The notes: generated by a model from the sequence alone, not told the origin. A DNA stretch of 64,000 nucleotides from Ktedonobacterales bacterium (GCA_035310125.1 DATGEP010000303.1:1813-65812), one strand, 5' to 3'. Positions 34,800-46,798 are shown, counted from the stretch's first letter. Program-made: numbers and translations.

Positions 34800-36623
34800 T
34801 TAGGGTGTTGGGCCAAGGAAGGCGACAACGTGGCCGTTGTTGAGGCTCAGCCAATTGACCGACGAGCCGGAGAGGTCGCTGTTGATCAGCAGCACATTAC
34901 CGTCGCGGAGAATGAACATGGCGCCGGACGGCATCGTGTTTGCCTGCACGGCGTCGGCGGCGTCAGTGTCCACACGATGTGAGAGCACGCTCATGCCGGA
35001 TACGTCGAGCTCCCAGAAATCATGGCCCGTCACCTGGCCCTGCTCGGAGGAGGCATTCTGGGTGATGTAGAGATGTGTGCCATCAGCGGACGCGCTGACG
35101 CTGAGCGTGCCGGTGAAGGATGTGTTCGGCGGCGCGGCGGGTCCGCCCAGCGAGATGGTTCCGGTGAGCGTGGGGCCGGAAGTGCTGGGATCGAGGACGA
35201 AGACCTGCGCTTCAGGGCTGCCTCTGACGAGATACAGCTGCGGCGTCGCCAGCGCGGGCGTGGCAAGGGGAACAATCGGCGTCGCCGATGCGACTGACCC
35301 TGGCTGGGCGGTCGCGGTCGCCTGCGCGTACGCCGCAGCGGTCGCCTGCGCCTGAGAATAGGCGAGTGCGGCTGGCGTGTTAGCCACGAGCTGGGCGAGT
35401 GTGAAATCGCCGGGAATGGCCAGCTCTTGCATGAGGGCACCAGTCAGCGCATTTATGCGGCGCACGACCGCGTACTGTGGCCCGCGGGAATCCGAGAGAA
35501 TTAGCACGTCGAAAAGCCACTTGCCGTCCGGCGAGACCGCGACAGCGCCGTTCGCGCCCACCGAAGCCGTGTAGCCAGATGTCTTGAGCTTGGGCACGCT
35601 GGATGGGAAGGCGGATGCCGGCAGGCTGCCGGGCGGAGGCGGCATGGGGAGCGTGGCGTCAGTACCGGGATAATACTCATATGTAGTCGCTCCGGTCGCT
35701 GCGTCCACCGCGAGTATGCGTATCTCGCCATAGGTAGTGGGGGCGGCATTGTTCAGGCCGACATAGAGCGTCGAGCCACCGGGCGCGACAACCAGGGCGT
35801 CTGCCAGATTATCAGCGAGGAGCGCCTTGCCGCTGGGATACTTGAGTGTGACCGCATAGCGCAGCGCGCCGGTGCTGGCGTCGAATGCGACCAGCGCCTG
35901 CTGGTGCGAGGCGTCGGGCGCCGTGATCTCGTAGACTGTCCGTCCATCCGGCGAGACACACAGGGCTACGGGCATTTGAGCGGAGCTAGCACTCTGGAGG
36001 CTGTCGCTAGAGCTGGGTAGTGAGTGAACGACAGCGCCGGTATGCTGACTCACGGCGATCACCTCGGCGACCTGCCAGGTGTGGCCGGAAGCATCCCGCA
36101 CGGTCACGAGCTTGTCCGTTTCCGCGAGCAATGTGCCGGACGGCGATGCTGCTGGCACGTTATTCAGCGCGTTGGAGGAGCGGGAAACCCCATGCGCGTT
36201 GGCATTGAAGAGGATGCCAGCGAGCAGGAATGCCGTGATCAGGGCCAACCCGAGGATGCTCGACACGCCGATGGCGCCCCCGCGCGAGAGGCCACTGGCC
36301 GCGCGTAGCATGCTTTTGGTGAAGCGATTGCTGGCGAGGTGCGCACGTACTGAATCGCGCAGATCAGGGACGGTGGCGACTGGTTCCGTGCCAAGCGACG
36401 CCAGCAGCTCATAGGGCGCGCGCAGGGTGCGCGACCGATTACCGCATGTCTCGCAGACGGCGATATGCTCGCGGACGGCCAGTGTCACATCCGGCGGCAG
36501 CTCGCCCGCGAATTCGGCAACGAGCAATTCCGGCTCAAGTGGGCACTGGAGGGCGCGCAAGTTACGGCGCCGGGTAGTCACCCGGTGAATCCGTACAGGG
36601 GGATTACTATAAACCTCTGGCAT
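34800..36623 (-). CDS. Anti-sigma factor: zf-HC2, one TM segment, and an extracytoplasmic YVTN/beta-propeller-like domain
   Basis: REHIAVCETCG (zf-HC2), TM GVSSILGLALITAFLLAGILF, and repeats VSPDGRTVYE, VAPGGSTLYVG, VSPDGKWLFD, ASADGTHLYIT. It lies 26 nt downstream of the sigma gene. Confidence 0.75.
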   Translation of the reverse strand: MPEVYSNPPVRIHRVTTRRRNLRALQCPLEPELLVAEFAGELPPDVTLAVREHIAVCETCGNRSRTLRAPYELLASLGTEPVATVPDLRDSVRAHLASNRFTKSMLRAASGLSRGGAIGVSSILGLALITAFLLAGILFNANAHGVSRSSNALNNVPAASPSGTLLAETDKLVTVRDASGHTWQVAEVIAVSQHTGAVVHSLPSSSDSLQSASSAQMPVALCVSPDGRTVYEITAPDASHQQALVAFDASTGALRYAVTLKYPSGKALLADNLADALVVAPGGSTLYVGLNNAAPTTYGEIRILAVDAATGATTYEYYPGTDATLPMPPPPGSLPASAFPSSVPKLKTSGYTASVGANGAVAVSPDGKWLFDVLILSDSRGPQYAVVRRINALTGALMQELAIPGDFTLAQLVANTPAALAYSQAQATAAAYAQATATAQPGSVASATPIVPLATPALATPQLYLVRGSPEAQVFVLDPSTSGPTLTGTISLGGPAAPPNTSFTGTLSVSASADGTHLYITQNASSEQGQVTGHDFWELDVSGMSVLSHRVDTDAADAVQANTMPSGAMFILRDGNVLLINSDLSGSSVNWLSLNNGHVVAFLGPTP

Positions 36624-36649
36624 CCCAACATTCCTCTATTGCTGTATGA

Positions 36650-38404
36650 TTACTGCGCCTGCGCTTCAATAGCGGCGTCGTTGGGCGCCTCCATCGTCAT
36701 CGCAATCGGCTTGTGTGGCGCCTCGAAGGCGTCTGCGTCGGCATAGACGCTCGTATTGGCTTCCTCGCCAACCGGCACACCTGAGAGTGGCGCCGAGCCG
36801 GTAGATGTCGTTGGTGTGAGCACCGGCACGATCCGCACGGCGCGCTCGGCGGGCGTCGGCGCGGCAGGCACCAACGGCGCCGCATCTACGGCGAGCACCT
36901 CATTGGACGTATCGCGTCTGCTCTCCGCCGGATCAGCGCTCGTCAGCACTGGCACGACACGCGGCGCGTACGGCACGGCGGGCGCGGGAGTGAGAATCGG
37001 CACGAACCGCGTCGTCAGGGTCGGCAGGGACAGCTCATGTGTGGCTGTCTCCAGGCGGACTGGATCTGGCGGGCAAGCCGGAATCTCAACCGCCGCGAGC
37101 CGCAAGGCGAGCAGAACATCCGCCGCCGTCACGTCGGGGGCGCTGATGACGGCGGTATCCACCAGCGGCAGCGCAATGACAGGCACCGCGTCCACGATCG
37201 CAGTCGTCTCGACGATGATCATCGGCTTCTCCGCGTCGGGGTGGGGAGTCGCCGCTGCATGCTCTTCCAGGATGAGCGTGTCTGCCTCGTTGCTCTCGGA
37301 CATTTCTGGAGCCGTGGCGGCGACTACCGTTACCGGCTCCGGCGAAGGTGGCACGAATGTGGCCGGCGCGCCGGTCGTGCGCGGCGGCGGCGCAAATGCT
37401 GGCATTTCCCACGCGCCTGTTGGCTGCTCCTCGATGGGCATCATTTCGAGACTGTCGGGGGGCGTCTCAGACAGCGGCGCGGCGGCAGCCGGTGTGGGCG
37501 GCGTGGTGCGTGCGATCCGTGGCGGCTGAGTCATACGCGGCGCATTGGGTGCCAGCGACTCCAGGGAGATGCCCAGGCTGGCGATGGCAGCTTCGTAGCG
37601 CTGCGCGAAGAGCTGGAGTCCCTGTACAATGCGGCGGCGTGTCGCGCTGTGCGTGATGCCGAGCGCCTGCGCCACTTCCGCCTGATTGAGTCCGGCGATG
37701 AGATGCAACGCCAGGCACTGCGCGTCGCCGTAGGGGATCTCCGCAAGCACCGCGCGCACCATGCGATAGCGCAGCGCCTCACGGGGATCCTGCTGCGCGG
37801 GATCTTCTTCGATGACGATAGGGGGAGGCGTGCGTCGCTGGAATGGATGCTCTGTGCCGTTCGCCCTGGGTGCTTTGTGCGACCGCGCTGGAGCTGACCT
37901 TGGCTCATGTTGGGGGGCATCCGTCCCGTTAGACCAGATGAGCTGGCGCACCTGCCGGCTGGTGCTGCCGGTGAGATTCGCCAGCGCACCCAGCCCGGAG
38001 CGTAGCTTACCGACGGCTGCTTCGCCGGCACGCTCGGGCAAGAGGCCAGCCGTGTGCGGGCTATCCAATCGCGGCGTGGCATGGCTGTGGTGCGGGTGAC
38101 GTAGCGCATCGAGGCCGGATTCTGTGCAGGCGCGCAGCAGCCAGAGTCGCAGCCGCTGTCCACCATGCGGACCGCGCAGCCGGTTCTCCATACGGACGAA
38201 GATGCGCTCGGCGAGCGCCCGCGATGTATCGGGGTTGCCGGTGAGCCTGGTAAGATAGCGCGTGACGGGTGGCTGATAGCGCGCCACAAGGGCCGCCAGC
38301 GCCCACTCGGCGCCGGCGCGCGCCTGCGACGCGAGGCGCAGCTCGCGCTCTTCCTCGGCATCTATGTGTGAGACATTGAGCGGAAACACTTCCTGCCAGG
38401 CCAT
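36650..38404 (-). CDS. ECF-like sigma factor with a long inter-domain linker and a ~290-aa Pro/Ala/Thr-rich C-terminal extension
   Basis: Region-2-like LVARYQPPVTRYLTRLTGNPDTSRALAERIFVRM and region-4 HTH LIAGLNQAEVAQALGITHSATRRRIVQGLQLF. ATG at 38404 with a GGGAAGGGAAAGG RBS. The track ORF begins at a GTG (38467). Confidence 0.7.
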   Translation of the reverse strand: MAWQEVFPLNVSHIDAEEERELRLASQARAGAEWALAALVARYQPPVTRYLTRLTGNPDTSRALAERIFVRMENRLRGPHGGQRLRLWLLRACTESGLDALRHPHHSHATPRLDSPHTAGLLPERAGEAAVGKLRSGLGALANLTGSTSRQVRQLIWSNGTDAPQHEPRSAPARSHKAPRANGTEHPFQRRTPPPIVIEEDPAQQDPREALRYRMVRAVLAEIPYGDAQCLALHLIAGLNQAEVAQALGITHSATRRRIVQGLQLFAQRYEAAIASLGISLESLAPNAPRMTQPPRIARTTPPTPAAAAPLSETPPDSLEMMPIEEQPTGAWEMPAFAPPPRTTGAPATFVPPSPEPVTVVAATAPEMSESNEADTLILEEHAAATPHPDAEKPMIIVETTAIVDAVPVIALPLVDTAVISAPDVTAADVLLALRLAAVEIPACPPDPVRLETATHELSLPTLTTRFVPILTPAPAVPYAPRVVPVLTSADPAESRRDTSNEVLAVDAAPLVPAAPTPAERAVRIVPVLTPTTSTGSAPLSGVPVGEEANTSVYADADAFEAPHKPIAMTMEAPNDAAIEAQAQ

Positions 38405-38619
38405 CGTCGCCTTTCCCTTCCCATGCGGCGGCTTCCAGGACACGGGGATGTATCGTACCCGGCCCACAGGCCTACTATTTTATGCGTCAATAGAATAGGA
38501 CGCTTGAGCAACCTGTATCGCTACGTACGTTTGGGCCACATTCGTACGTCTGCGCGTCACAATACTCACACATTGTGTGCCAACGATGAGGTTCTAGCAG
38601 CTCTCTTCCAGGAATCGCG

Positions 38620-39399
38620 TCATAACAGCGCTTCGTCGCCCGCCCGCAAAACGCGCGGAGCGGCTCCCGATGCGAACACAGTGACCGTCTGCCGGCCCAT
38701 CACACACCAGCGCGCCGGAGCATGCGCGCCATTGTAGGCCACGCGAACCAGGGCAGTATCTTCATCTACGCCAAGTGCGGCGCGACCGTCTGGGATGGCG
38801 GCCAGCAGATCGTTGAACGCCTGCTGTCCGACGAAGCCGGCCATGCGGTCGAAGTGCGGGAACGTGATGAGCTGGGGAACCACACCCAGCGCATCCACAA
38901 ACACGCTCTGTGTCTCGGCGGGCGACGACGAAGCGGACATAACGCGGCGTAGCGAGGCGCTCTGGCCGCCGAACGCCATCGCGCCAGCGCTGCATCCCGC
39001 CAGTACGGCACCGCGCGCGTGCGCCTCACGAATAATCTCCCATGCGGGCGTGTCGCGCAGTGCTTCGGTAATCTGGCCGGGCGCGCCGCCGGAGAAGTAG
39101 AAGAAGGTGCCGTCGCGAAGAAGGTCGAGCTGGCCTGGGTCGAAGGCGTCCGCGCGGTTAAGAATGGTGCTGAGACGAACCTGCGTGACGCCGAGGCTCG
39201 TGAAGTGGCGCTGGCCCATCGCATTCCAGCGCGCCGGCGCGCCTTCTTCGAGTCCGCTCGCCGTCGGCAGCAGCACCACCCGCGCGAACGCGGGTCCACC
39301 GAGTGTTCCCAGCAGGTAGGCGTCCGTATCGTGCATGGCGCGCGTGTACTCGCCCGAGCCGACGAGCGCAAGCGCGCCTGGGACCGTGTCGCTCGGCAT
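38620..39399 (-). CDS. Peptidase S51 family (cyanophycinase/PepE-like, class-I glutamine amidotransferase-like fold)
   Basis: Nucleophile context LAGCSAGAMAFG and FYFSGG. AGGAGAAG RBS is present. The start lies 11 nt after the stop of the cysS fusion gene. Confidence 0.8.
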   Translation of the reverse strand: MPSDTVPGALALVGSGEYTRAMHDTDAYLLGTLGGPAFARVVLLPTASGLEEGAPARWNAMGQRHFTSLGVTQVRLSTILNRADAFDPGQLDLLRDGTFFYFSGGAPGQITEALRDTPAWEIIREAHARGAVLAGCSAGAMAFGGQSASLRRVMSASSSPAETQSVFVDALGVVPQLITFPHFDRMAGFVGQQAFNDLLAAIPDGRAALGVDEDTALVRVAYNGAHAPARWCVMGRQTVTVFASGAAPRVLRAGDEALL

Positions 39400-39410: not shown

Positions 39411-42002
39411 CTATCGCTCGTGCTGGCTCGTCTGCGGAGCCAGCGGGAAATTCGTCGAAAGCTGTTCGCTTGCCGTGGGGTCGAAGCTGGGTTGATAGAC
39501 GGCTGGCGTCGCGGGATCGTGCCAGCGCGGCGCGGGCAGATGAACATGCGCGTGCGTATGCGAGTGGTCTGGCCAGTGCTTGTGCTCGTGGCTGTGTGGT
39601 CCCGCGCCTGTGTATGCGGTATGCTCGAAACGCGGGTCCACGATATCCTCGGGCGTCTCGTGGTCGTGCCCCCAGGGGGCGGCTTGCCCAGGCACAAAGT
39701 AGCGCACCAGCAGGCTTTCGCAGTGGTGGCGGCGGCGCCGGAAGATGTCGAAGTTCTTTTTGCTCTTGGTCGCCTGCTCCTCCTCAGAGAGCGCGTACCA
39801 TTCCCGATGTGGATGCTTGATCACGCGCGCGGCGACCTCTGGACTGACGACAGCGCGGAAGCCCGCTTTCTTGAACTCGAAGCTGTAATCAATATCCATC
39901 AGCCGGTAGAAGCGGAATTTCTCGTCGGCGGGGCCGACCTCGCGCAGCGTCGTGCGGCGGAAAGCCATGAGATAGCCCTCGATGGCGTCTACATCCGGCC
40001 CAACGCTCTCGCGAAACTCACGCAGGTCGTCCGTCACCAGGCCGTACGGTCCCACCAGGCCGATATCCGGCCTCTCCAGCAGCGCTTCGATGGGTGTCCA
40101 GATATCGCCGCTGAGCGCAATGCTCGTGTCAATCTGGACCACGATGCGGCCCAAGCTGGCGCGGAACTGGGCATTGCGCCCCGCCGCGAAGCCCATATCA
40201 TGGTCAGCGAAGAGCACGCGCACGGGCAGCCCGTTCACGGCGCCATCGGCGTCCAGGCGCTTCAAATATGCCAGCGTATCATCGGTCGAGCCGTTATCGA
40301 GGATGACGAGCTCGATATCGCGCCCACCCGCGTGGCGCGCCACGCTCGCGACGCAGCGCTCCAGATCGGCGCCGCTGTTGTGCGCAAGCAGATTGACCGA
40401 GAACGCATAACGATCCGGCGCCTCAAGTCGCGAGGGGACGTCGCCCGATCCGCTGATGAGCACCTCGTCGCCGGCGCGCCGCACCAGACGGACGCCTGGT
40501 GTCGCATCCCGTACTTCGTATCCCGCCGCGTGTATGCGCGCCCGCAGCGCATCGGCGGCGTCAAACGCCCGGCGCTGGCGCAGCGCGAGCCGCTCGCGGG
40601 CCAGCAGCATCACCGGCGCGGACACATCATTCTCTAGCGTGACGATCTGTTCGCCCGAGTCACGCCACTGCCGCTGGCGCTCTGCTCGCCGTGCGACCGC
40701 CGCTGCCAGATCAAAACCCAATATGGTATCGAATTCGTAGAGCAGGGCCAACCGATCGCGCGGGGTGATGGATTCATCGCGCGCCATGCCCCAGACGACG
40801 GCCATCGCGCGCGGCATGTTCAGATCATCGTTCACCGCTGCCCAAAACGCTTGCCGCGCCGCACCCGCGCCGTTCTCGCCGTCCGCGCGGGCGGGCGGAG
40901 ATGGCCGGTCGGCGAGGCGATATACTAGCTCGCGCAGACGGTTCAGGGACACCTGGGCCGCGCGCAGCGCGCGGAAGGTGAAGTTGATCCGGCTGCGATA
41001 TTTGGCCATCGTGAAGAAGTAGCGCAGGGCCAGCGGCTCGAAGCCCCGCGCCTCGACATCCGCCAGTGTGTAGGCGTTGCCGGTGGACTTGGCCATCTTG
41101 AGGCCGTCGGCGAGCAGGTGCTGCCCATGCACCCAATATGAGACGAAGCGCTGGCCGCTGGCGGCCTCGCTCTGCGCCCGCTCATCCTCGTGGTGCGGGA
41201 AGATGTTGTCCACTCCTCCCGTGTGCAGATCGAATTGCGGGCCGAGATACTTCGCGCTCATGGCGCTACACTCGATATGCCAGCCGGGGAAGCCGCGACC
41301 CCAGGGGCTATCCCATGCCATGATGCGCCCCTCCTCCGCGACTTTCCAGAGCGGGAAGTCTTCCGGGGCGCGCTTGTTGGCGTCAACCTCATTGGCGGTG
41401 TGCTGCCCCTGGCCGAGATACTCAAGCAAATTGCCGCTGAGCTGGCCATATCCCGGAAAATCCTTGACGGAGAAGAAGACGTTACCGCCGGCCTCGTAGG
41501 CGCTGCCGTTGTCGAGGAGCCGCTGGACCATCGCGATCATCTCTGGGATGTGGTCGGTGGCGCGGGGGAAGACGTGCGCGGGCAGGATGTTCAGCTTCTG
41601 TTCGTCGGTGTGAAAGGCGTCCGTATAGAAGGCGGCAATATCCCACGGCGTTTTGCCTTCACGGCGCGCCTGGACCACCAGTTTGTCTTCGCCGCGATCT
41701 AGCGCCTCCTGGCGCATATGCCCGACATCGGTGATGTTCTTGATCTGCATGACCTCGATGCCCTGCGCGGTGAGGGCGCGGCGGATCCAGTCGGCCATGG
41801 TGAAGGTGCGCAGGTTGCCGACGTGAATGAATCGGTAGACGGTGGGGCCACAGCTATACATGCGGAGGCGCCCGGCTTCCAGTGGCACGATGCGCTCGAC
41901 GGCTCGGCTCATGGTATTGAAGAGGTGTAAAGGTGTTCCGCCGCGCTCATTGGCGCTGGAGCCGGTCCGCGGTATCTCGTCCTGGGGAGTGGGGTCCATC
42001 AT
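39411..42002 (-). CDS. cysS: Cysteinyl-tRNA synthetase fused to a C-terminal GT2 glycosyltransferase domain and a His-rich tail
   Basis: CysRS part: YSCGPTVYRFIHVGN, WHIECS, HTGGVDNIFPHHEDE, KMAKSTGN, FWAAVNDDLNMP. GT2 part: FSVNLLAHNSG...ELVILDNGSTDDT...GFAAGRN. Tail: HSHEHKHWPDHSHTHAHVH. ATG at 42002 lies 6 nt after AGGAGCA. Confidence 0.85.
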   Translation of the reverse strand: MMDPTPQDEIPRTGSSANERGGTPLHLFNTMSRAVERIVPLEAGRLRMYSCGPTVYRFIHVGNLRTFTMADWIRRALTAQGIEVMQIKNITDVGHMRQEALDRGEDKLVVQARREGKTPWDIAAFYTDAFHTDEQKLNILPAHVFPRATDHIPEMIAMVQRLLDNGSAYEAGGNVFFSVKDFPGYGQLSGNLLEYLGQGQHTANEVDANKRAPEDFPLWKVAEEGRIMAWDSPWGRGFPGWHIECSAMSAKYLGPQFDLHTGGVDNIFPHHEDERAQSEAASGQRFVSYWVHGQHLLADGLKMAKSTGNAYTLADVEARGFEPLALRYFFTMAKYRSRINFTFRALRAAQVSLNRLRELVYRLADRPSPPARADGENGAGAARQAFWAAVNDDLNMPRAMAVVWGMARDESITPRDRLALLYEFDTILGFDLAAAVARRAERQRQWRDSGEQIVTLENDVSAPVMLLARERLALRQRRAFDAADALRARIHAAGYEVRDATPGVRLVRRAGDEVLISGSGDVPSRLEAPDRYAFSVNLLAHNSGADLERCVASVARHAGGRDIELVILDNGSTDDTLAYLKRLDADGAVNGLPVRVLFADHDMGFAAGRNAQFRASLGRIVVQIDTSIALSGDIWTPIEALLERPDIGLVGPYGLVTDDLREFRESVGPDVDAIEGYLMAFRRTTLREVGPADEKFRFYRLMDIDYSFEFKKAGFRAVVSPEVAARVIKHPHREWYALSEEEQATKSKKNFDIFRRRRHHCESLLVRYFVPGQAAPWGHDHETPEDIVDPRFEHTAYTGAGPHSHEHKHWPDHSHTHAHVHLPAPRWHDPATPAVYQPSFDPTASEQLSTNFPLAPQTSQHER

Positions 42003-42125
42003 AACGCATGCTCCTGAGTAGGCGGATTGAGGGCGCGGCAAGTGGCACGCGATCTGAACAACGGCGTGAAGAGATGGTACACACTGTACCGCGCGCCACC
42101 GCGTGAGCGCCAGCAAATCGCTGGA

Positions 42126-43013: not shown

Positions 43014-43089
43014 CGGCGTTGGCGCTCTGCGACTTGCGCCGCTGCGCTACCCCTCACCTATTCCCGTTTCCTACAATGTGTGCGCTCGT

Positions 43090-43120
43090 TCTCCCATGCG
43101 GAGAGTGGCCGGGGGTGAGG
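43090..43120 (+). repeat. Hairpin plus GGCCGGGGGTGAGG element, copy 2 (24 nt upstream of the nuoA start)
   Basis: TCTCCcatgcGGAGAgtGGCCGGGGGTGAGG. The core at 43107-43120 is identical to the other copies. Confidence 0.8.
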
Positions 43121-43144
43121 ATCTCAAGGGACTTGGAGGTGCAA

Positions 43145-43516
43145 GTGATCGCAACCGGCTATCTTTTCGCCGCCATCTTCTTTCTCGGCGGCTGTGGTTT
43201 CGTGCTCTTCGCACTGACACTGGCCGACACGCTGAACGCGCTCTTCTTGAAGCGGAAGCCCGCCAAGGACAAGCTCGACATCTACGAGTCCGGCGAAACG
43301 CCTATTGGCTCAGCGTGGGTGCAGTATCCGCTCGCGTTCTACATCTTTGCGCTGCTCTTCGTCGCCTTCGATGTAGATATCGTCTTCATTCTCTCGTGGG
43401 CGGTCATCTTCCAGCAGCTTAGCGTCTTTGGCTTCGTGGAGATGGTCTTCTTCATCGTCGTCCTGGCGCTGGGTCTGGTTTACGCCTGGCGGAAAGGGGT
43501 CATTCATTGGCTCTAA
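43145..43516 (+). CDS. nuoA: NADH-quinone oxidoreductase subunit A
   Basis: GTG start after GGAGGTG. YESGETPIGSAWVQYPLAFYIFALLFVAFDVDIVFILSW is a typical NuoA/ND3 signature. The upstream part of the track ORF contains the repeat element. Confidence 0.85.
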   Translation: MIATGYLFAAIFFLGGCGFVLFALTLADTLNALFLKRKPAKDKLDIYESGETPIGSAWVQYPLAFYIFALLFVAFDVDIVFILSWAVIFQQLSVFGFVEMVFFIVVLALGLVYAWRKGVIHWL

Positions 43517-44325
43517 CGCAACCGGCTGCCGGCGGCGGGCCGTCACTGGAAGCCTTCGACACGAATCATATCAATGAGCTACTCAACCTGCTGGGCCAGC
43601 TCGACGAGGCCGCCGGGCAGTCCGTCCCCAAGCGCCGGCTACCCGCGGGTGTGGTGGGCATCGAAGTGGCGAGCGAGCGCCTCCTAGCTGTGGCGCGCGT
43701 GCTCCGCGACTCCCTCAGCTTCGATATGCTCACCTGCGTATCGGGTGTGGACATGGTGGACCATATCGAGTCGGTCTATCATTTCCACTCATTGAGCCGT
43801 AACTGGCTGCTCCAAGTGCGCGTAAAACTGCCTAATGACGCGCCCGCCGTGGACTCGCTGGTTGGCCTGTATCCCTCCGCCAACTGGCTGGAGCGCGAGT
43901 GCTATGACATGGTCGGCATTACCTATCGCGGCCACCCCGATCTGCGGCGCATTCTGCTGGACGACGATTTCAACGGCTATCCGCTGCTCAAGAGCTTCCA
44001 CCCGACGCCGATCACCGTGCATGATCGCGCGACGACGCAGGTAGATGGGGTGCGAGCGGTCGCGGGCGAGCAGCAACGCAATGTGGAGCGCATCGTCTCG
44101 AAGAATCTCGGCCAGGGCGAGGAGGAGCGGCTGCATCCCGGCAAACTGACCTTCGGCAGCGCGGCGGTGTACCTCAAAACGGGCCAGGGCGTCGAGCCGC
44201 CGGATGTTCCCGCTGGGAGCCAGGGGAGCCAGGCGGTTGAGCCTCGTCCGACCTTCTCTTCAGAACAAGCTACGTCACGGGCGGAGCCTAAGACAGGCGG
44301 CGGCGCCGGAGCGCAAAAGGGGTAG
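43507..44325 (+). CDS. nuoC: NADH-quinone oxidoreductase subunit C with a ~80-aa C-terminal extension
   Basis: LVGLYPSANWLERECYDMVGITYRGHPDLRRILL is the NuoC/30-kDa signature. The TTG start overlaps the nuoA stop by 10 nt. Confidence 0.85.
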   Translation: MALTQPAAGGGPSLEAFDTNHINELLNLLGQLDEAAGQSVPKRRLPAGVVGIEVASERLLAVARVLRDSLSFDMLTCVSGVDMVDHIESVYHFHSLSRNWLLQVRVKLPNDAPAVDSLVGLYPSANWLERECYDMVGITYRGHPDLRRILLDDDFNGYPLLKSFHPTPITVHDRATTQVDGVRAVAGEQQRNVERIVSKNLGQGEEERLHPGKLTFGSAAVYLKTGQGVEPPDVPAGSQGSQAVEPRPTFSSEQATSRAEPKTGGGAGAQKG

Positions 44326-44328
44326 GAT

Positions 44329-45480
44329 ATGGCGATTGACCCGAATGTGCAGGCCGAAATGTTCGAGCAGGGCATCGGCGGGCTGCGCAGCGAGGAGATG
44401 ATCCTCAACATGGGACCGCAGCACCCCTCGACACATGGCGTGCTGCGGCTGGTGCTGACCCTGGACGGCGAGACGGTGGTAAACTGCACGCCCGTCATCG
44501 GGTATCTGCACCGCGGCATGGAGAAAATCTTCGAGAACCGGCCCTACATGTCCGGAATTCGTTACATTGACAATGCGGACTACCTCAGCCCGATGATCAA
44601 CGAGACGTGCTACGCGGGCGCTGTGGAAGCGATTCTCGGTATCGAGCCGCCGCGCCGCGCCCAATACATCACCTTGATCGTCAACGAGCTGGAGCGGATC
44701 GCCAGTCACCTCGTTGCCATCGGGACGTATGGGCTGGACCTCGGCGCTTCCACGCCGGTGCTGTGGGCTTTCCGCGACCGCGAGCAGATCCTCGATATGT
44801 TTGAGGCGCTTTCGGGCCACCGCTTTACGCACAATTATTTGCGCGTCGGCGGCGTGATGTACGACATCCCCAAGGGCTGGCTGGAGACCTGCGAGAAGTT
44901 TCTGGACACGTTTGCAGGCCGCAGCCTGCCGGAGTTCGAGACGCTGCTGACAGGCAACGAAATCTTCGAGGCGCGCACGCAGGGCGTCGGTTACATTGAT
45001 CCGCAGCAGGCTATCGCCTATGCGATGACCGGACCCATCCTGCGGGCTTCCGGCGTCAACTTCGATGTGCGTGTGGCGCGGCCGTATGGCGCGTATCGCG
45101 AAATCGCGGTGCGGCCCGTCGTCCGGCAGGAGGGCGACTGCTTCGCGCGTTATAAGGTGCGCATGGATGAGATGGTCGAGAGCGTCCGGCTCTGCCGCGA
45201 GGCGATTGACAAGCTCCCAGGCGGCTCCATCTCGCAACGCTCACCCATCGCGCTACGCCCACCGCGCGGCGAGGCGTACTACTCTGTCGAGAGCGCTCGC
45301 GGCGAAGAGAGTATCTATATGATCAGCGATGGCTCGGAGTATCCGTATCGCGCCAAGCTGCGCGGGCCGTCGTTCGTGAATTTGCAGATTCTGCCCGAGC
45401 TGCTGCGCGGGCGGCGTGTGGGCGATGTTATCGCCATTATGGGCAGCATTGATCTCGTGCTCGGCGACGTGGATCGCTAG
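44329..45480 (+). CDS. nuoD: NADH-quinone oxidoreductase subunit D
   Basis: MILNMGPQHPSTHGVLRL...IGYLHRGMEKI...SIDLVLGDVDR. It starts 3 nt after the nuoC stop. Confidence 0.95.
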   Translation: MAIDPNVQAEMFEQGIGGLRSEEMILNMGPQHPSTHGVLRLVLTLDGETVVNCTPVIGYLHRGMEKIFENRPYMSGIRYIDNADYLSPMINETCYAGAVEAILGIEPPRRAQYITLIVNELERIASHLVAIGTYGLDLGASTPVLWAFRDREQILDMFEALSGHRFTHNYLRVGGVMYDIPKGWLETCEKFLDTFAGRSLPEFETLLTGNEIFEARTQGVGYIDPQQAIAYAMTGPILRASGVNFDVRVARPYGAYREIAVRPVVRQEGDCFARYKVRMDEMVESVRLCREAIDKLPGGSISQRSPIALRPPRGEAYYSVESARGEESIYMISDGSEYPYRAKLRGPSFVNLQILPELLRGRRVGDVIAIMGSIDLVLGDVDR

Positions 45481-45493
45481 GGGTGGAGGCAGC

Positions 45494-46798
45494 ATGAATG
45501 ACGTCGTCTACAACATCATCCACTTCGTCATCACGTTCCTGTTCGCGCTGTTCTTCCTGATGACGGCGGCCTCGCTGCTCGTCTATTCAGAGCGCAAGGT
45601 TCAGGCGTTCATGCAGGACCGGTGGGGACCACTACACTACGGGCCGCAGGGCATCCTGCTGGCGATCATTGACCCGATGAAGCTCCTGTTGAAGGAAGAC
45701 ATCAAGCCTACGGCGACGGACAATGTGGTGTTCAGGATGGCGCCGATGGTCTTCTTCGCGCCGGTCATCGCGGCCTTTGTCGTGTTGCCGTTCTCGCCGT
45801 TCCTGACGACCAGCGCGCTAGCGACGGGCATCATCTACTATGTGGCCCTCAGCTCGATTGACGTCATTGGCGTCTTCATGGCGGGCTGGGGCTCGAACAA
45901 TAAGTATGCGCTGATTGGTGGCCTGCGCTCCACCGCGCAGATGATCTCATACGAGCTGCCGCTGGTGCTCTCGCTGGTCGGCGCCGTGATGATCACGAGC
46001 GTGCTGAGTCCGGGCTGCGCTGGCACGAATCCGAACCTCAGTCAATGTGGCATCGGCTCCATCTCGTTTAGCGAAGTGGTGGCGGCGCAGATGCGGCCCG
46101 CCTCGCCCTGGCTCTGGCTCGTGCTGCTCCAGCCGCTCGGTTTGCTCGTTTACTACATCTGCGGACTCGCGGAGACGAACCGTACGCCCTTCGACCTGCC
46201 CGAAGCTGAATCGGAGCTGGTCGCCGGCTATCTGACGGAGTATAGCGGGCTGCGGTGGGCGATGTTCTTCCTGGGCGAGTATGGCAACATGACCATCGTC
46301 TCGGCGGTGGGTACTGCGCTCTTTCTCGGCGGGTGGTCGGGGCCGGGAGCCGCCATCGCATTCTGGACGGGCGCGCTGGGCTCGTTCTGGGGTCAGGTGG
46401 TCTTCAATATCATCGGTCTCTTCTGGTTTGTCGCCAAGATGCTGGTGCTGCTGCTGCTCTTCCAGTGGATCCGCGCGACGCTGCCCCGCTTGCGGGCCGA
46501 TCAGCTCATGCGCTTCGCCTGGTTGTATCTGATCCCGCTGACGCTATTCAACATCGTGCTGACGGGCGGACTGCTGCTGATTCCGGTCAGCATCCCCCTG
46601 CGATTGGGGTTCGTGGCCGCATCCAACTGGCTGCTCACGATTCTCATGATCAGCACGTTGCGCAAAGTCACGGGCGTCACATCGTTCGGCAAGGTGCCAC
46701 GCTGGATACGGGCACGCGCGCGGGCAACGGCGCCGGGTGCTCCTCCAACCGCTGTCCCGCAGCCGTCGGGCCGTGAACTGGCTGGTACGCGGCGGTAG
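45494..46798 (+). CDS. nuoH: NADH-quinone oxidoreductase subunit H with an internal insertion and a C-terminal extension
   Basis: GGTGGAGG RBS. ERKVQAFMQDRWGP, LAETNRTPFDLPEAESELVAGY and EYGNM are NuoH/ND1 motifs. Confidence 0.9.
   Translation: MNDVVYNIIHFVITFLFALFFLMTAASLLVYSERKVQAFMQDRWGPLHYGPQGILLAIIDPMKLLLKEDIKPTATDNVVFRMAPMVFFAPVIAAFVVLPFSPFLTTSALATGIIYYVALSSIDVIGVFMAGWGSNNKYALIGGLRSTAQMISYELPLVLSLVGAVMITSVLSPGCAGTNPNLSQCGIGSISFSEVVAAQMRPASPWLWLVLLQPLGLLVYYICGLAETNRTPFDLPEAESELVAGYLTEYSGLRWAMFFLGEYGNMTIVSAVGTALFLGGWSGPGAAIAFWTGALGSFWGQVVFNIIGLFWFVAKMLVLLLLFQWIRATLPRLRADQLMRFAWLYLIPLTLFNIVLTGGLLLIPVSIPLRLGFVAASNWLLTILMISTLRKVTGVTSFGKVPRWIRARARATAPGAPPTAVPQPSGRELAGTRR

Follow-up and report, generated by a model that had tools for sequence, protein, structure and literature searches.

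In a 64,000-nucleotide stretch of DNA from a Ktedonobacterales bacterium (GCA_035310125.1, DATGEP010000303.1:1813-65812; the whole stretch is called the window here), the minus strand carries a gene in which a cysteinyl-tRNA synthetase (CysRS) continues in frame into a glycosyltransferase (GT)-like module of the GT-A fold and a histidine-rich end (Table 1). The frame is free of stop codons over window positions 39411-42002 and translates to 863 amino acids. An earlier reading, made from the sequence alone (the sequence-only reading), had placed the start at the ATG at 42002, 6 nt past AGGAGCA, and had reported a single uninterrupted frame of 2,592 nt; the window sequence bears this out, and all of the motif strings quoted in that reading are found in the window translation. 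The longest mechanically defined open reading frame (ORF) runs back to a TTG at 42116, and in alignments the homologues begin at or after the ATG. NCBI holds an identical protein (P0001), named “cysteine--tRNA ligase [Ktedonobacterales bacterium]”, on a 66,161-bp contig of a metagenome-assembled genome (MAG).

The derivation of the window from a MAG raises the possibility that an assembly or sequencing error joined a cysS gene to a GT2 gene through a missed stop or a frameshift, and long-read contigs do show errors of the reverse kind, in which fusions are split by frameshifts (as in P0288 and P0290). A protein search returned at least 120 clusters (58-82% identity, 797-913 amino acids), all with Pfam domains PF01406 and PF00535, named “cysteine--tRNA ligase” and originating from Ktedonobacterales and Ktedonobacteraceae. 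Further, we scanned one genome per GTDB species with two CysRS peptide patterns taken from alignment A1; at least 599 stretches matched, 582 of them relatives, and all counts given below for 80 genomes refer to the best 80 loci, among which no genome occurs twice. Each of these 80 loci holds a single uninterrupted fused ORF of 694-868 amino acids, the shortest being cut by contig ends. The fusion is carried by the isolates Thermogemmatispora aurantia, T. carboxidivorans, and Dictyobacter kobayashii, and also by Ktedonosporobacter; by MAGs labelled Kouleothrix, Roseiflexaceae, Herpetosiphonaceae, Ca. Chlorohelix, Thermoflexales, and Anaerolineae; and by many Dehalococcoidia, including closed chromosomes of 2.5-3.4 Mb. 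Proteins of SAR202 and Ca. Dormibacteria have the same architecture. The junction itself, consisting of the CysS_C domain and the linker that follows it, is conserved among homologues. Because the fusion is conserved in at least 120 independent clusters and in all 80 genomes, a frameshift or missed stop is ruled out, and the conserved frame in isolates and closed chromosomes disposes of a MAG artefact; we regard an artefactual origin as exceedingly improbable. The fusion architecture is real and is common in Chloroflexota. The earlier statement that it is not a standard architecture is therefore correct for bacteria generally but not for Chloroflexota and Dormibacterota, as judged from the 80/80 best genomes and the 582 relatives. 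That reading had also allowed that the architecture might turn out to be common and already characterized; common it is, but we found no paper on a CysRS-GT fusion in the literature and no published characterization.

Two observations on individual records are relevant to anyone who searches for these proteins. In L004 and L005 (ENA ERZ250395xx long-read contigs), apparent frameshifts split the fusion into two to three called genes, and such frameshifts give rise to false “stand-alone GT2” and truncated “CysRS” records in databases. In addition, P0143 (L093, 8001-10238) is a 745-amino-acid fusion with degenerate synthetase motifs and a retained GT module: HIGH has become VDINQ, KMSKS has become KMATR, the Trp of WHIEC is lost, and the TIGR00435 score is 235 against a cutoff of 340. 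This protein is a lone outlier among normal SAR202-type fusions of ~728 amino acids; as its genomic context is uninformative, we attach no weight to it.

The first 508 residues are, by every sequence criterion applied, a complete CysRS in which all catalytic and tRNA-binding features are intact. Pfam tRNA-synt_1e (PF01406) matches residues 39-349 with an E-value of 7.5e-94, and with the NCBIfam cysS equivalog TIGR00435 the score is 389.4 bits (cutoff 340), the match spanning model positions 1-465 of 466. In a sequence search of the PDB, the nearest solved structures are CysRSs (8qhp, 4e-88; 6ujd; 1li5, 6.5e-83; and 1u0b), and residues 2-456 of the 461 of Escherichia coli CysRS (1li5/1u0b) align with fusion residues 25-504. 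The residues of the Zn/cysteine site, C51 (YSCGPT), C245 (WHIECS), H270/H271, and E274 (FPHHEDE), are invariant in alignment A1 and include the equivalents of the Zn/cysteine-binding C28, C209, H234, and E238 of the E. coli enzyme. The HxGN motif is found in 80/80 genomes and a KMSKS-type motif in 79/80; C-GPT, WHIEC, PHHExE, HxGN, and KM[AS]KS are each present in 79-80/80, and the solved CysRS 6ujd likewise has the HxGN/NITDxGH variant. The anticodon-binding end is equally well preserved. Alignment to 1li5 equates R475, F480, D484, R487, and D499 of the fusion with R427, W432, D436, R439, and D451 of E. coli CysRS, and these positions are kept in 79-80/80 genomes. In a study based on PDB 1U0B, R427, W432, D436, and R439 are the anticodon-binding-domain residues for mutagenesis, and R427 hydrogen-bonds O6 of G34 (PMC13449415, 2026). 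Thus, the claim that this looks like a genuine tRNA-charging enzyme has held up, on the HxGN and KMAKS motifs, the Zn/cysteine-site residues, and the whole anticodon-binding region. We considered and rejected membership in MshC, the TIGR03447 score being 210 bits against a cutoff of 485.1 and the anticodon-binding region being retained. The synthetase is apparently active and of housekeeping type; in favour of the latter, each of the 80 species genomes, isolates and closed chromosomes included, contributes one of the best 80 loci, and no operon partner is shared phylum-wide.

Beyond the synthetase, the claimed in-frame continuation into a GT-A/GT2 fold is confirmed by Pfam, by structure prediction with AlphaFold2 (AF2), and by Foldseek. 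Pfam Glycos_transf_2 (PF00535) matches residues 538-633 (4.9e-14; 53 bits, gathering score 23.3), and scores for relatives reach 72-75 bits. An AF2 model that covers residues 507-830 and draws on 21 homologues has a predicted local distance difference test (pLDDT) score of 80 and a predicted template modelling (pTM) score of 0.80, with pLDDT >90 over most of the module; for the linker, pLDDT climbs to 92 by model residues 11-20, and it is modelled packed against the GT module. Foldseek returned 611 matches in the PDB at E<=1e-3, of which the best 50 listed are all of GT-A type (including 6p61, GalNAc-transferases, and SpsA). The top matches, at E ~1e-11 and 13-24% identity, are the Leptospira GT 6p61, GT27 GalNAc-transferases, SpsA, TarS, and K4CP. 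A profile search of PDB sequences gave a concordant result. No NCBIfam family is specific for the module; MftF comes nearest, with 38 bits (cutoff 280). The module signature comprises D569-N-G-S-T-D574, D600-H601, R609-N610, D625-T-S627, D672, E675-G-Y677, R682-R683, R697/R700/D703, H730-P-H-R-E-W735, and S747-K-K-N750.

The description of the module as a GT2 domain is right as to fold but needs amendment at one place: the canonical DXD motif is missing, and the subfamily has D-T-S-x-E in its stead, with Ala in place of the Glu in the window protein. More generally, the signature at the DXD position is D-[TS]-S-x-E. In a motif census of 334 modules, D625-T-S was found in 123/123 Ktedonobacteria-type fusions, and Glu629 in 122/123 of these and in 143/146 short paralogs (described below). 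Across the species genomes, Glu629 is kept in 79/80. The window protein has all of the elements of this CysS_C-GT2 subfamily (a CysS_C-like domain, the linker, HxHRxW, and S-[KR]-[KR]-N) except E629. Its Ala629 is either a consensus error of the MAG or a genuine change in this lineage, one that is possibly inactivating, and the E629A substitution may weaken GT activity in this organism.

In the module, position 569 is D in 69/80 genomes and E in 10/80, and D574 is found in 79/80; D569, N570, S572, D574, N610, D625, S627, E629, D672, Y677, R683, R697, R700, D703, H730, H732, W735, and N750 are each present in 69-80/80. Compared with the window protein, the Ktedonobacteria-like group is 71% identical in the synthetase core, 65% in the module, and 36% in the helical anticodon-binding domain, and Dehalococcoidia-like sequences are 64% identical in the core and 42% in the module. 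These comparisons show the polar, active-site-like residues of the module to be under strong purifying selection, as read from alignments, across several classes of Chloroflexota. Because the module is so strongly constrained, it is better regarded as a specific binding or catalytic site than as a decaying passenger, and the best explanation of the sequence data is that it is a functional, non-canonical GT-A (GT2-like) domain of a dedicated subfamily. By analogy with the DxH-plus-distal-His arrangement of GT27, H730/H732 could form a metal site together with D625/E629.

Relatives of the module outside the fusion connect it to a particular part of the synthetase. An exhaustive profile-free search that started from the C-terminal 306 residues brought up 9,318 relatives, of which 70 scored below 1e-30, and the nearest that are not fusions are proteins of ~300-330 amino acids made up of a CysS_C domain (PF23493) and the GT module. 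A second search yielded more than 100 CysS_C-GT2 clusters in Chloroflexota, Dehalococcoidia, and Ktedonobacteraceae. Wherever a full-length example was inspected, CysS_C comes immediately before the module, whether in a whole CysRS or in paralogs of ~310 amino acids. The short genes do stand alone: in L001, L003, L006, L010, and L011 the genes that lie upstream are other than cysS, and one assembly (DATLSI01) has both a fusion (L021) and a short paralog (L003). Of the short paralogs, ~123/146 have kept R475, D484, R/K487, G494, and D499, the rest being gapped at the N-terminus, and an aromatic residue is retained at position 480. Thus, the GT module is physically and evolutionarily coupled to CysS_C. 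In the fusion, the GT pocket would lie close to the CysS_C binding site, because the 22-residue linker is conserved and modelled packed on the module. The evidence points to a tie between the GT module and the tRNACys anticodon-binding domain, a link that the sequence-only reading did not make.

Several candidates for stand-alone GT2 proteins were rejected: P0131 is a fragment of a 728-amino-acid fusion, and P0288 and P0290 come from long-read contigs in which frameshifts have broken up the fusion. P0129, whose N-terminus is unlike CysS_C, may be another frameshifted fusion. The second, short CysS_C-GT2 paralog of Ktedonobacteraceae (~315 amino acids; 8001-8954 in L001 and L003, 8001-8945 in L006, and 3574-4518 in L007) has lost the HxHRxW motif. 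Its surroundings show conserved synteny, the paralog being flanked by a gamma-glutamyltranspeptidase gene and an M3 peptidase gene, and a ManC-like nucleotidyltransferase is encoded upstream; L001 also has G6PD and a disulfide reductase close by. In another lineage (L010, 6388-9268; L011 and L012, 7001-8493), the short CysS_C-GT2 gene is followed by DUF1684, and L010 has, in addition, a DsbA-like gene between these two and a gene for a TadA-like deaminase ahead of the GT2 gene.

At the C-terminal end of the fusion, W-GHDH (777-781) and H803-x-H-x-H-x-H-W-P-D-H-x-H-x-H-x-H-x-H821 are invariant in alignments A1 and A2, and the pattern H.HWPDH.H.H.H.H is found in 113/120 homologues. Across the species genomes, the strict His motif occurs in 38/80, and 50/80 have at least eight His in the last 60 amino acids; Dehalococcoidia-type fusions are without the motif. 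The His-rich stretch is not low-complexity noise but a conserved motif. AF2 models this region as a low-confidence beta-hairpin. The His-rich tail, which is found in Ktedonobacteria-type proteins, probably binds metal. The last 42 residues are, by the model, probably disordered, and they are lineage-specific, since the Ktedonobacteraceae proteins end just after the His motif. The sequence-only reading, which had described a His-rich tail with a possible role in metal handling, is thus upheld for a conserved and plausibly metal-binding motif but not for the extreme C-terminus.

Around the fusion, the Peptidase_S51 gene is probably co-transcribed with it, because its start lies only 11 nt after the fusion stop, and this gene is probably a lineage-specific operon partner, because the same downstream neighbour is found in L009 and in 11/80 loci. 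The spacer between the upstream DUF6306-like gene and the fusion is 123 nt and is without an Rfam or T-box element; in L009 a gene without a Pfam match occupies the same upstream position. Other neighbours among the 80 loci include a YqeY-like gene upstream in 18 and a ThuA/GFO gene downstream in 22, and the lack of any neighbour shared phylum-wide is what one would expect of a housekeeping synthetase gene. In a subset of Dehalococcoidia-like genomes, and not in the window, a small glutaredoxin-like gene (67-69 amino acids, with CPTC or CPTS; 43-91% identity) lies directly upstream on the same strand, in L004, L005, and 7/80 loci. No T-box or other Rfam element reached its gathering score anywhere in the window, promoter and terminator scans gave nothing usable, no second cysS or GT paralog was found within the 64 kb, and tRNA genes were found neither in the window nor in 60 related loci. 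Elsewhere in the window, positions 34800-38467 (minus strand) encode a sigma-70-like protein (regions 2 and 4, both weak) with a Pro/Ala-rich C-terminal extension of ~300 amino acids, together with a partner gene for a zf-HC2 anti-sigma-type protein with a beta-propeller-like domain. At 43019-46798 (plus strand), divergent ORFs resemble an NADH:quinone oxidoreductase (nuo) operon, as judged from the translations alone.

Table 1. Coordinates of the fusion gene, its parts, and neighbouring genes (window positions unless a locus is named)
Feature	Position	Strand	Remarks
CysRS-GT2-His fusion coding sequence	39411..42002	-	863 codons; stop at 39411-39413
Shine-Dalgarno-like AGGAGCA	42009..42015	-	6 nt before the ATG at 42002
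Variable N-terminal extension, residues 1-24	41931..42002	-	Missing in Ktedonobacteraceae homologues; pLDDT ~32
CysRS Rossmann catalytic core, residues 25-350	40953..41930	-	Pfam PF01406, 7.5e-94
HVGN motif, H60-N63	41814-41825	-	HxGN variant of HIGH
KMAKS motif, K302-S306	41085-41099	-	KMSKS equivalent
Helical anticodon-binding (DALR-like) domain, residues 351-460	40623..40952	-	TIGR00435 coverage; weak DALR_2 match; aligns to E. coli 346 onward
CysS_C-type C-terminal anticodon-binding domain, residues 461-508	40479..40622	-	Alignment to 1li5
Linker, residues 509-530 (IS.S.DVPS.L.xPD)	40413..40478	-	Conserved in alignments A2 and A3
GT-A fold GT2-like module, residues 531-765	39708..40412	-	Pfam PF00535, AF2, Foldseek
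D625-T626-S627 at the canonical DXD position	40122..40130	-	DAD of 6p61 aligns to DTS (PDB profile search)
Ala629, codon GCG	40116..40118	-	Near-invariant Glu in the family; GAG one base away
His-rich region, residues 776-821 (W-GHDH ... HxHxHxHWPDHxHxHxHxH)	39540..39677	-	Core motif 39540-39596
C-terminal tail, residues 822-863	39414..39539	-	Lineage-specific; pLDDT <40
Peptidase_S51 gene, downstream	38620..39399	-	Pfam 3e-16; starts 11 nt past the fusion stop
Upstream gene, 233 amino acids	42126..42827	-	Sub-threshold DUF6306 match, 20.8 vs 23.7 bits
Glutaredoxin-like gene	L004 6539-6742; L005 6627-6836; L062, L064, L069, L075, L084, L087, L090	Same as fusion	

Comparison with characterized systems places the protein among several relatives without matching any of them. 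Canonical bacterial CysRSs (E. coli CysS 1LI5/1U0B; 8QHP; 6UJD) align over their whole length with fusion residues 25-508, but the fusion has a short variable N-terminal extension and ~355 additional C-terminal residues, comprising the GT-A module, the His-rich motif, and the disordered tail. MshC (3C8Z, 8HFM) shares the CysRS-type core and provides a precedent for a CysRS relative that joins cysteine to a sugar, yet it is without an anticodon-binding region and a GT fusion and aligns to the fusion only up to residue 410. GT2 enzymes of GT-A fold (SpsA 1QG8/1H7Q, 6P61, TarS, K4CP) and GT27 have in common with the module the fold, the DNGS.D loop, G..A.RN, and ..FRR. Unlike them, the module has D-T-S-x-E for DXD and HxHRxW and SKKN motifs of its own, has a CysRS anticodon-binding domain ahead of it in the examples inspected, and is only 13-24% identical to solved structures.

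Fusion of an aminoacyl-tRNA synthetase (aaRS) to a further enzyme has precedents. Mycobacterium tuberculosis LysX is a LysRS-MprF fusion of demonstrated function, in which the partner is a GNAT-like aminoacyl-tRNA transferase. The MetRS-aminotransferase of Mycoplasma penetrans is likewise a bacterial aaRS-enzyme fusion with a demonstrated function (PMC7694997). In both, as in the protein described here, a housekeeping-type synthetase is joined to a second domain of catalytic type, which in those two feeds it or uses its product; the partner here has a GT-A fold, in contrast to an aminotransferase or a GNAT-like transferase. With respect to tRNA as a possible target, GluQRS (YadB) illustrates that an aaRS-derived module can be directed to a tRNA anticodon loop for modification, and the animal queuosine glycosyltransferases QTGAL (B3GNTL1) and QTMAN illustrate that glycosyl transfer to a tRNA nucleoside exists. 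The products galQ and manQ have been described (PMC12518689). QTGAL, QTMAN, and GluQRS act on Q34 of tRNATyr or tRNAAsp, and tRNACys is without Q34. An aaRS with an appended catalytic-type domain is a known kind of protein; of the CysRS-GT version we found no published description.

For the function of the added parts, the sequence-only reading had offered moonlighting or regulation, low-molecular-weight-thiol-like chemistry, and metal handling, all of which stay hypotheses. Our tentative reading is that an active CysRS carries a GT module directed at tRNACys or Cys-tRNACys, a proposal that we consider possible rather than probable. CysS_C would dock tRNACys through its GCA anticodon, and the tethered module, using a nucleotide-sugar, would glycosylate tRNACys near the anticodon stem-loop or, alternatively, act on Cys-tRNACys. 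In such a scheme D625/E629 and H730/H732 would stand in for the DXD metal site, and the His tail may buffer or deliver a divalent metal, either Zn for the synthetase site or Mn or another metal for the GT. A number of points weigh against this proposal. The acceptor, whether tRNACys or Cys-tRNACys, is something we infer entirely, and to our knowledge there is no known glycosylated nucleoside in bacterial tRNACys. The canonical DXD is missing, and the window protein is the sole exception to Glu629 among 123 fusions. Some short paralogs have lost both the nucleotide-binding Asp and D625, so that some members of the subfamily may be inactive, and CysS_C could be kept in the short paralogs for structure or docking and not for tRNA binding. 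The module and the short paralogs are acidic, with a median isoelectric point (pI) of ~5.5 and no obvious large RNA-binding surface, as far as pI and charge serve as a proxy for RNA binding, given that the tRNA-binding domain of CysRS is likewise acidic. Further, the full-length AF2 model (pTM 0.55) has no confident interdomain geometry. Finally, the thiol-redox neighbours (glutaredoxin-like genes in nine loci, a DsbA-like gene, and gamma-glutamyltranspeptidase) fit cysteine or thiol chemistry equally well or better; the thiol-redox flavour of these neighbourhoods is suggestive, yet explicable by general cysteine biology.

Those neighbours lead to an alternative in which, by analogy with MshA/MshC, the GT makes or transfers an (amino)sugar acceptor and the CysRS part, through Cys-AMP or Cys-tRNACys, gives the activated cysteine for biosynthesis of a cysteine-sugar thiol. 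MshC, a CysRS paralogue that ligates Cys to glucosaminyl-inositol (GlcN-Ins), is indeed the next-best family for the synthetase (TIGR03447, 210 bits; 3c8z/8hfm). The glutaredoxin-like gene directly upstream of the fusion, the DsbA/thioredoxin-like gene that follows a short paralog, and the gamma-glutamyltranspeptidase, sugar nucleotidyltransferase, G6PD, and pyridine-nucleotide disulfide reductase genes around the Ktedonobacteraceae short paralog are all compatible with such a pathway, as is the fact that our literature search found no paper identifying the major thiol of Chloroflexota. We nevertheless judge it unlikely. The MshC score of 210 is far under the cutoff of 485, the complete anticodon-binding apparatus is kept, in contrast to MshC, and there is no conserved deacetylase or acetyltransferase partner. 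The short paralogs dispense with the Cys-activating domain and keep CysS_C, and the GT module is tethered by the anticodon-binding end, which in known CysRS structures (1U0B) is far from the aminoacylation site. The known pathways to Cys-sugar thiols use GT-B (GT4) enzymes and not GT2.

Is the module an enzyme at all? It might instead be non-catalytic, acting as a nucleotide-sugar sensor or as an oligomerization or scaffold domain that modulates CysRS activity or localization, with the His tail buffering Zn. Absence of a canonical DXD across the subfamily would be in line with this, as would the loss of D569 and/or D625 in several members (which have GSN, GNS, GVH, or GGH there), the E629A change in the window protein, the degenerate synthetase motifs of the P0143 lineage, the lack of a conserved sugar-pathway partner beside the fusion, and the failure to match any specific NCBIfam functional family (MftF, 38 bits vs 280). 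Against it, ~20 polar residues at positions typical of a GT-A active site persist in 69-80/80 genomes from several classes, and the module is nearly as conserved as the synthetase core, which would be expected of a catalytic or specific ligand-binding site; the GT27 GalNAc-transferases, which have DxH and a distal His, demonstrate that activity is compatible with a variant DXD. On balance, loss of catalysis in the subfamily as a whole also strikes us as rather unlikely. The remaining option, which we consider distinctly unlikely, is an ordinary GT for an unrelated acceptor, such as an envelope glycan, a lipid, or a protein, that was fused to cysS early in Chloroflexota and has been carried along since. 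Matches in both sequence and fold are indeed to generic GT2/GT-A enzymes that serve polysaccharide and teichoic-acid pathways (6p61, K4CP, TarS, SpsA), and many giant multi-GT proteins carry the domain at 25-35% identity. But a neutral fusion would not stay intact across classes under such constraint, there is neither a membrane anchor nor an envelope-biosynthesis neighbourhood, and the unfused copies that keep just CysS_C, with its anticodon-contact residues, would be left unexplained.

Bacterial aaRSs with appended catalytic domains are rare, and those that have been characterized revealed new biology (substrate supply in the case of MetRS and lipid aminoacylation in the case of LysX). Here, a constrained, non-canonical GT-like domain is attached to an essential-type synthetase in all 80 of the best genomes, including those of SAR202, Dehalococcoidia, and soil Ktedonobacteria, and its function is probably important. 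Automatic annotation hides this domain under “cysteine--tRNA ligase”. Depending on its acceptor, the domain could reveal a new tRNA modification, a cysteine-derived thiol, or a means of synthetase regulation, and these possibilities are directly testable because cultured Thermogemmatispora and Dictyobacter strains carry the gene. In its most specific form, which we hold to be doubtful, our proposal is that the module may be the first bacterial tRNA-directed GT, guided by CysRS's anticodon-binding domain and adding a sugar near the anticodon loop of tRNACys or to the cysteinyl group of Cys-tRNACys. If so, the short CysS_C-GT2 paralogs would exercise this GT activity as independent proteins, and charging and modification would be coupled in one polypeptide across much of Chloroflexota.

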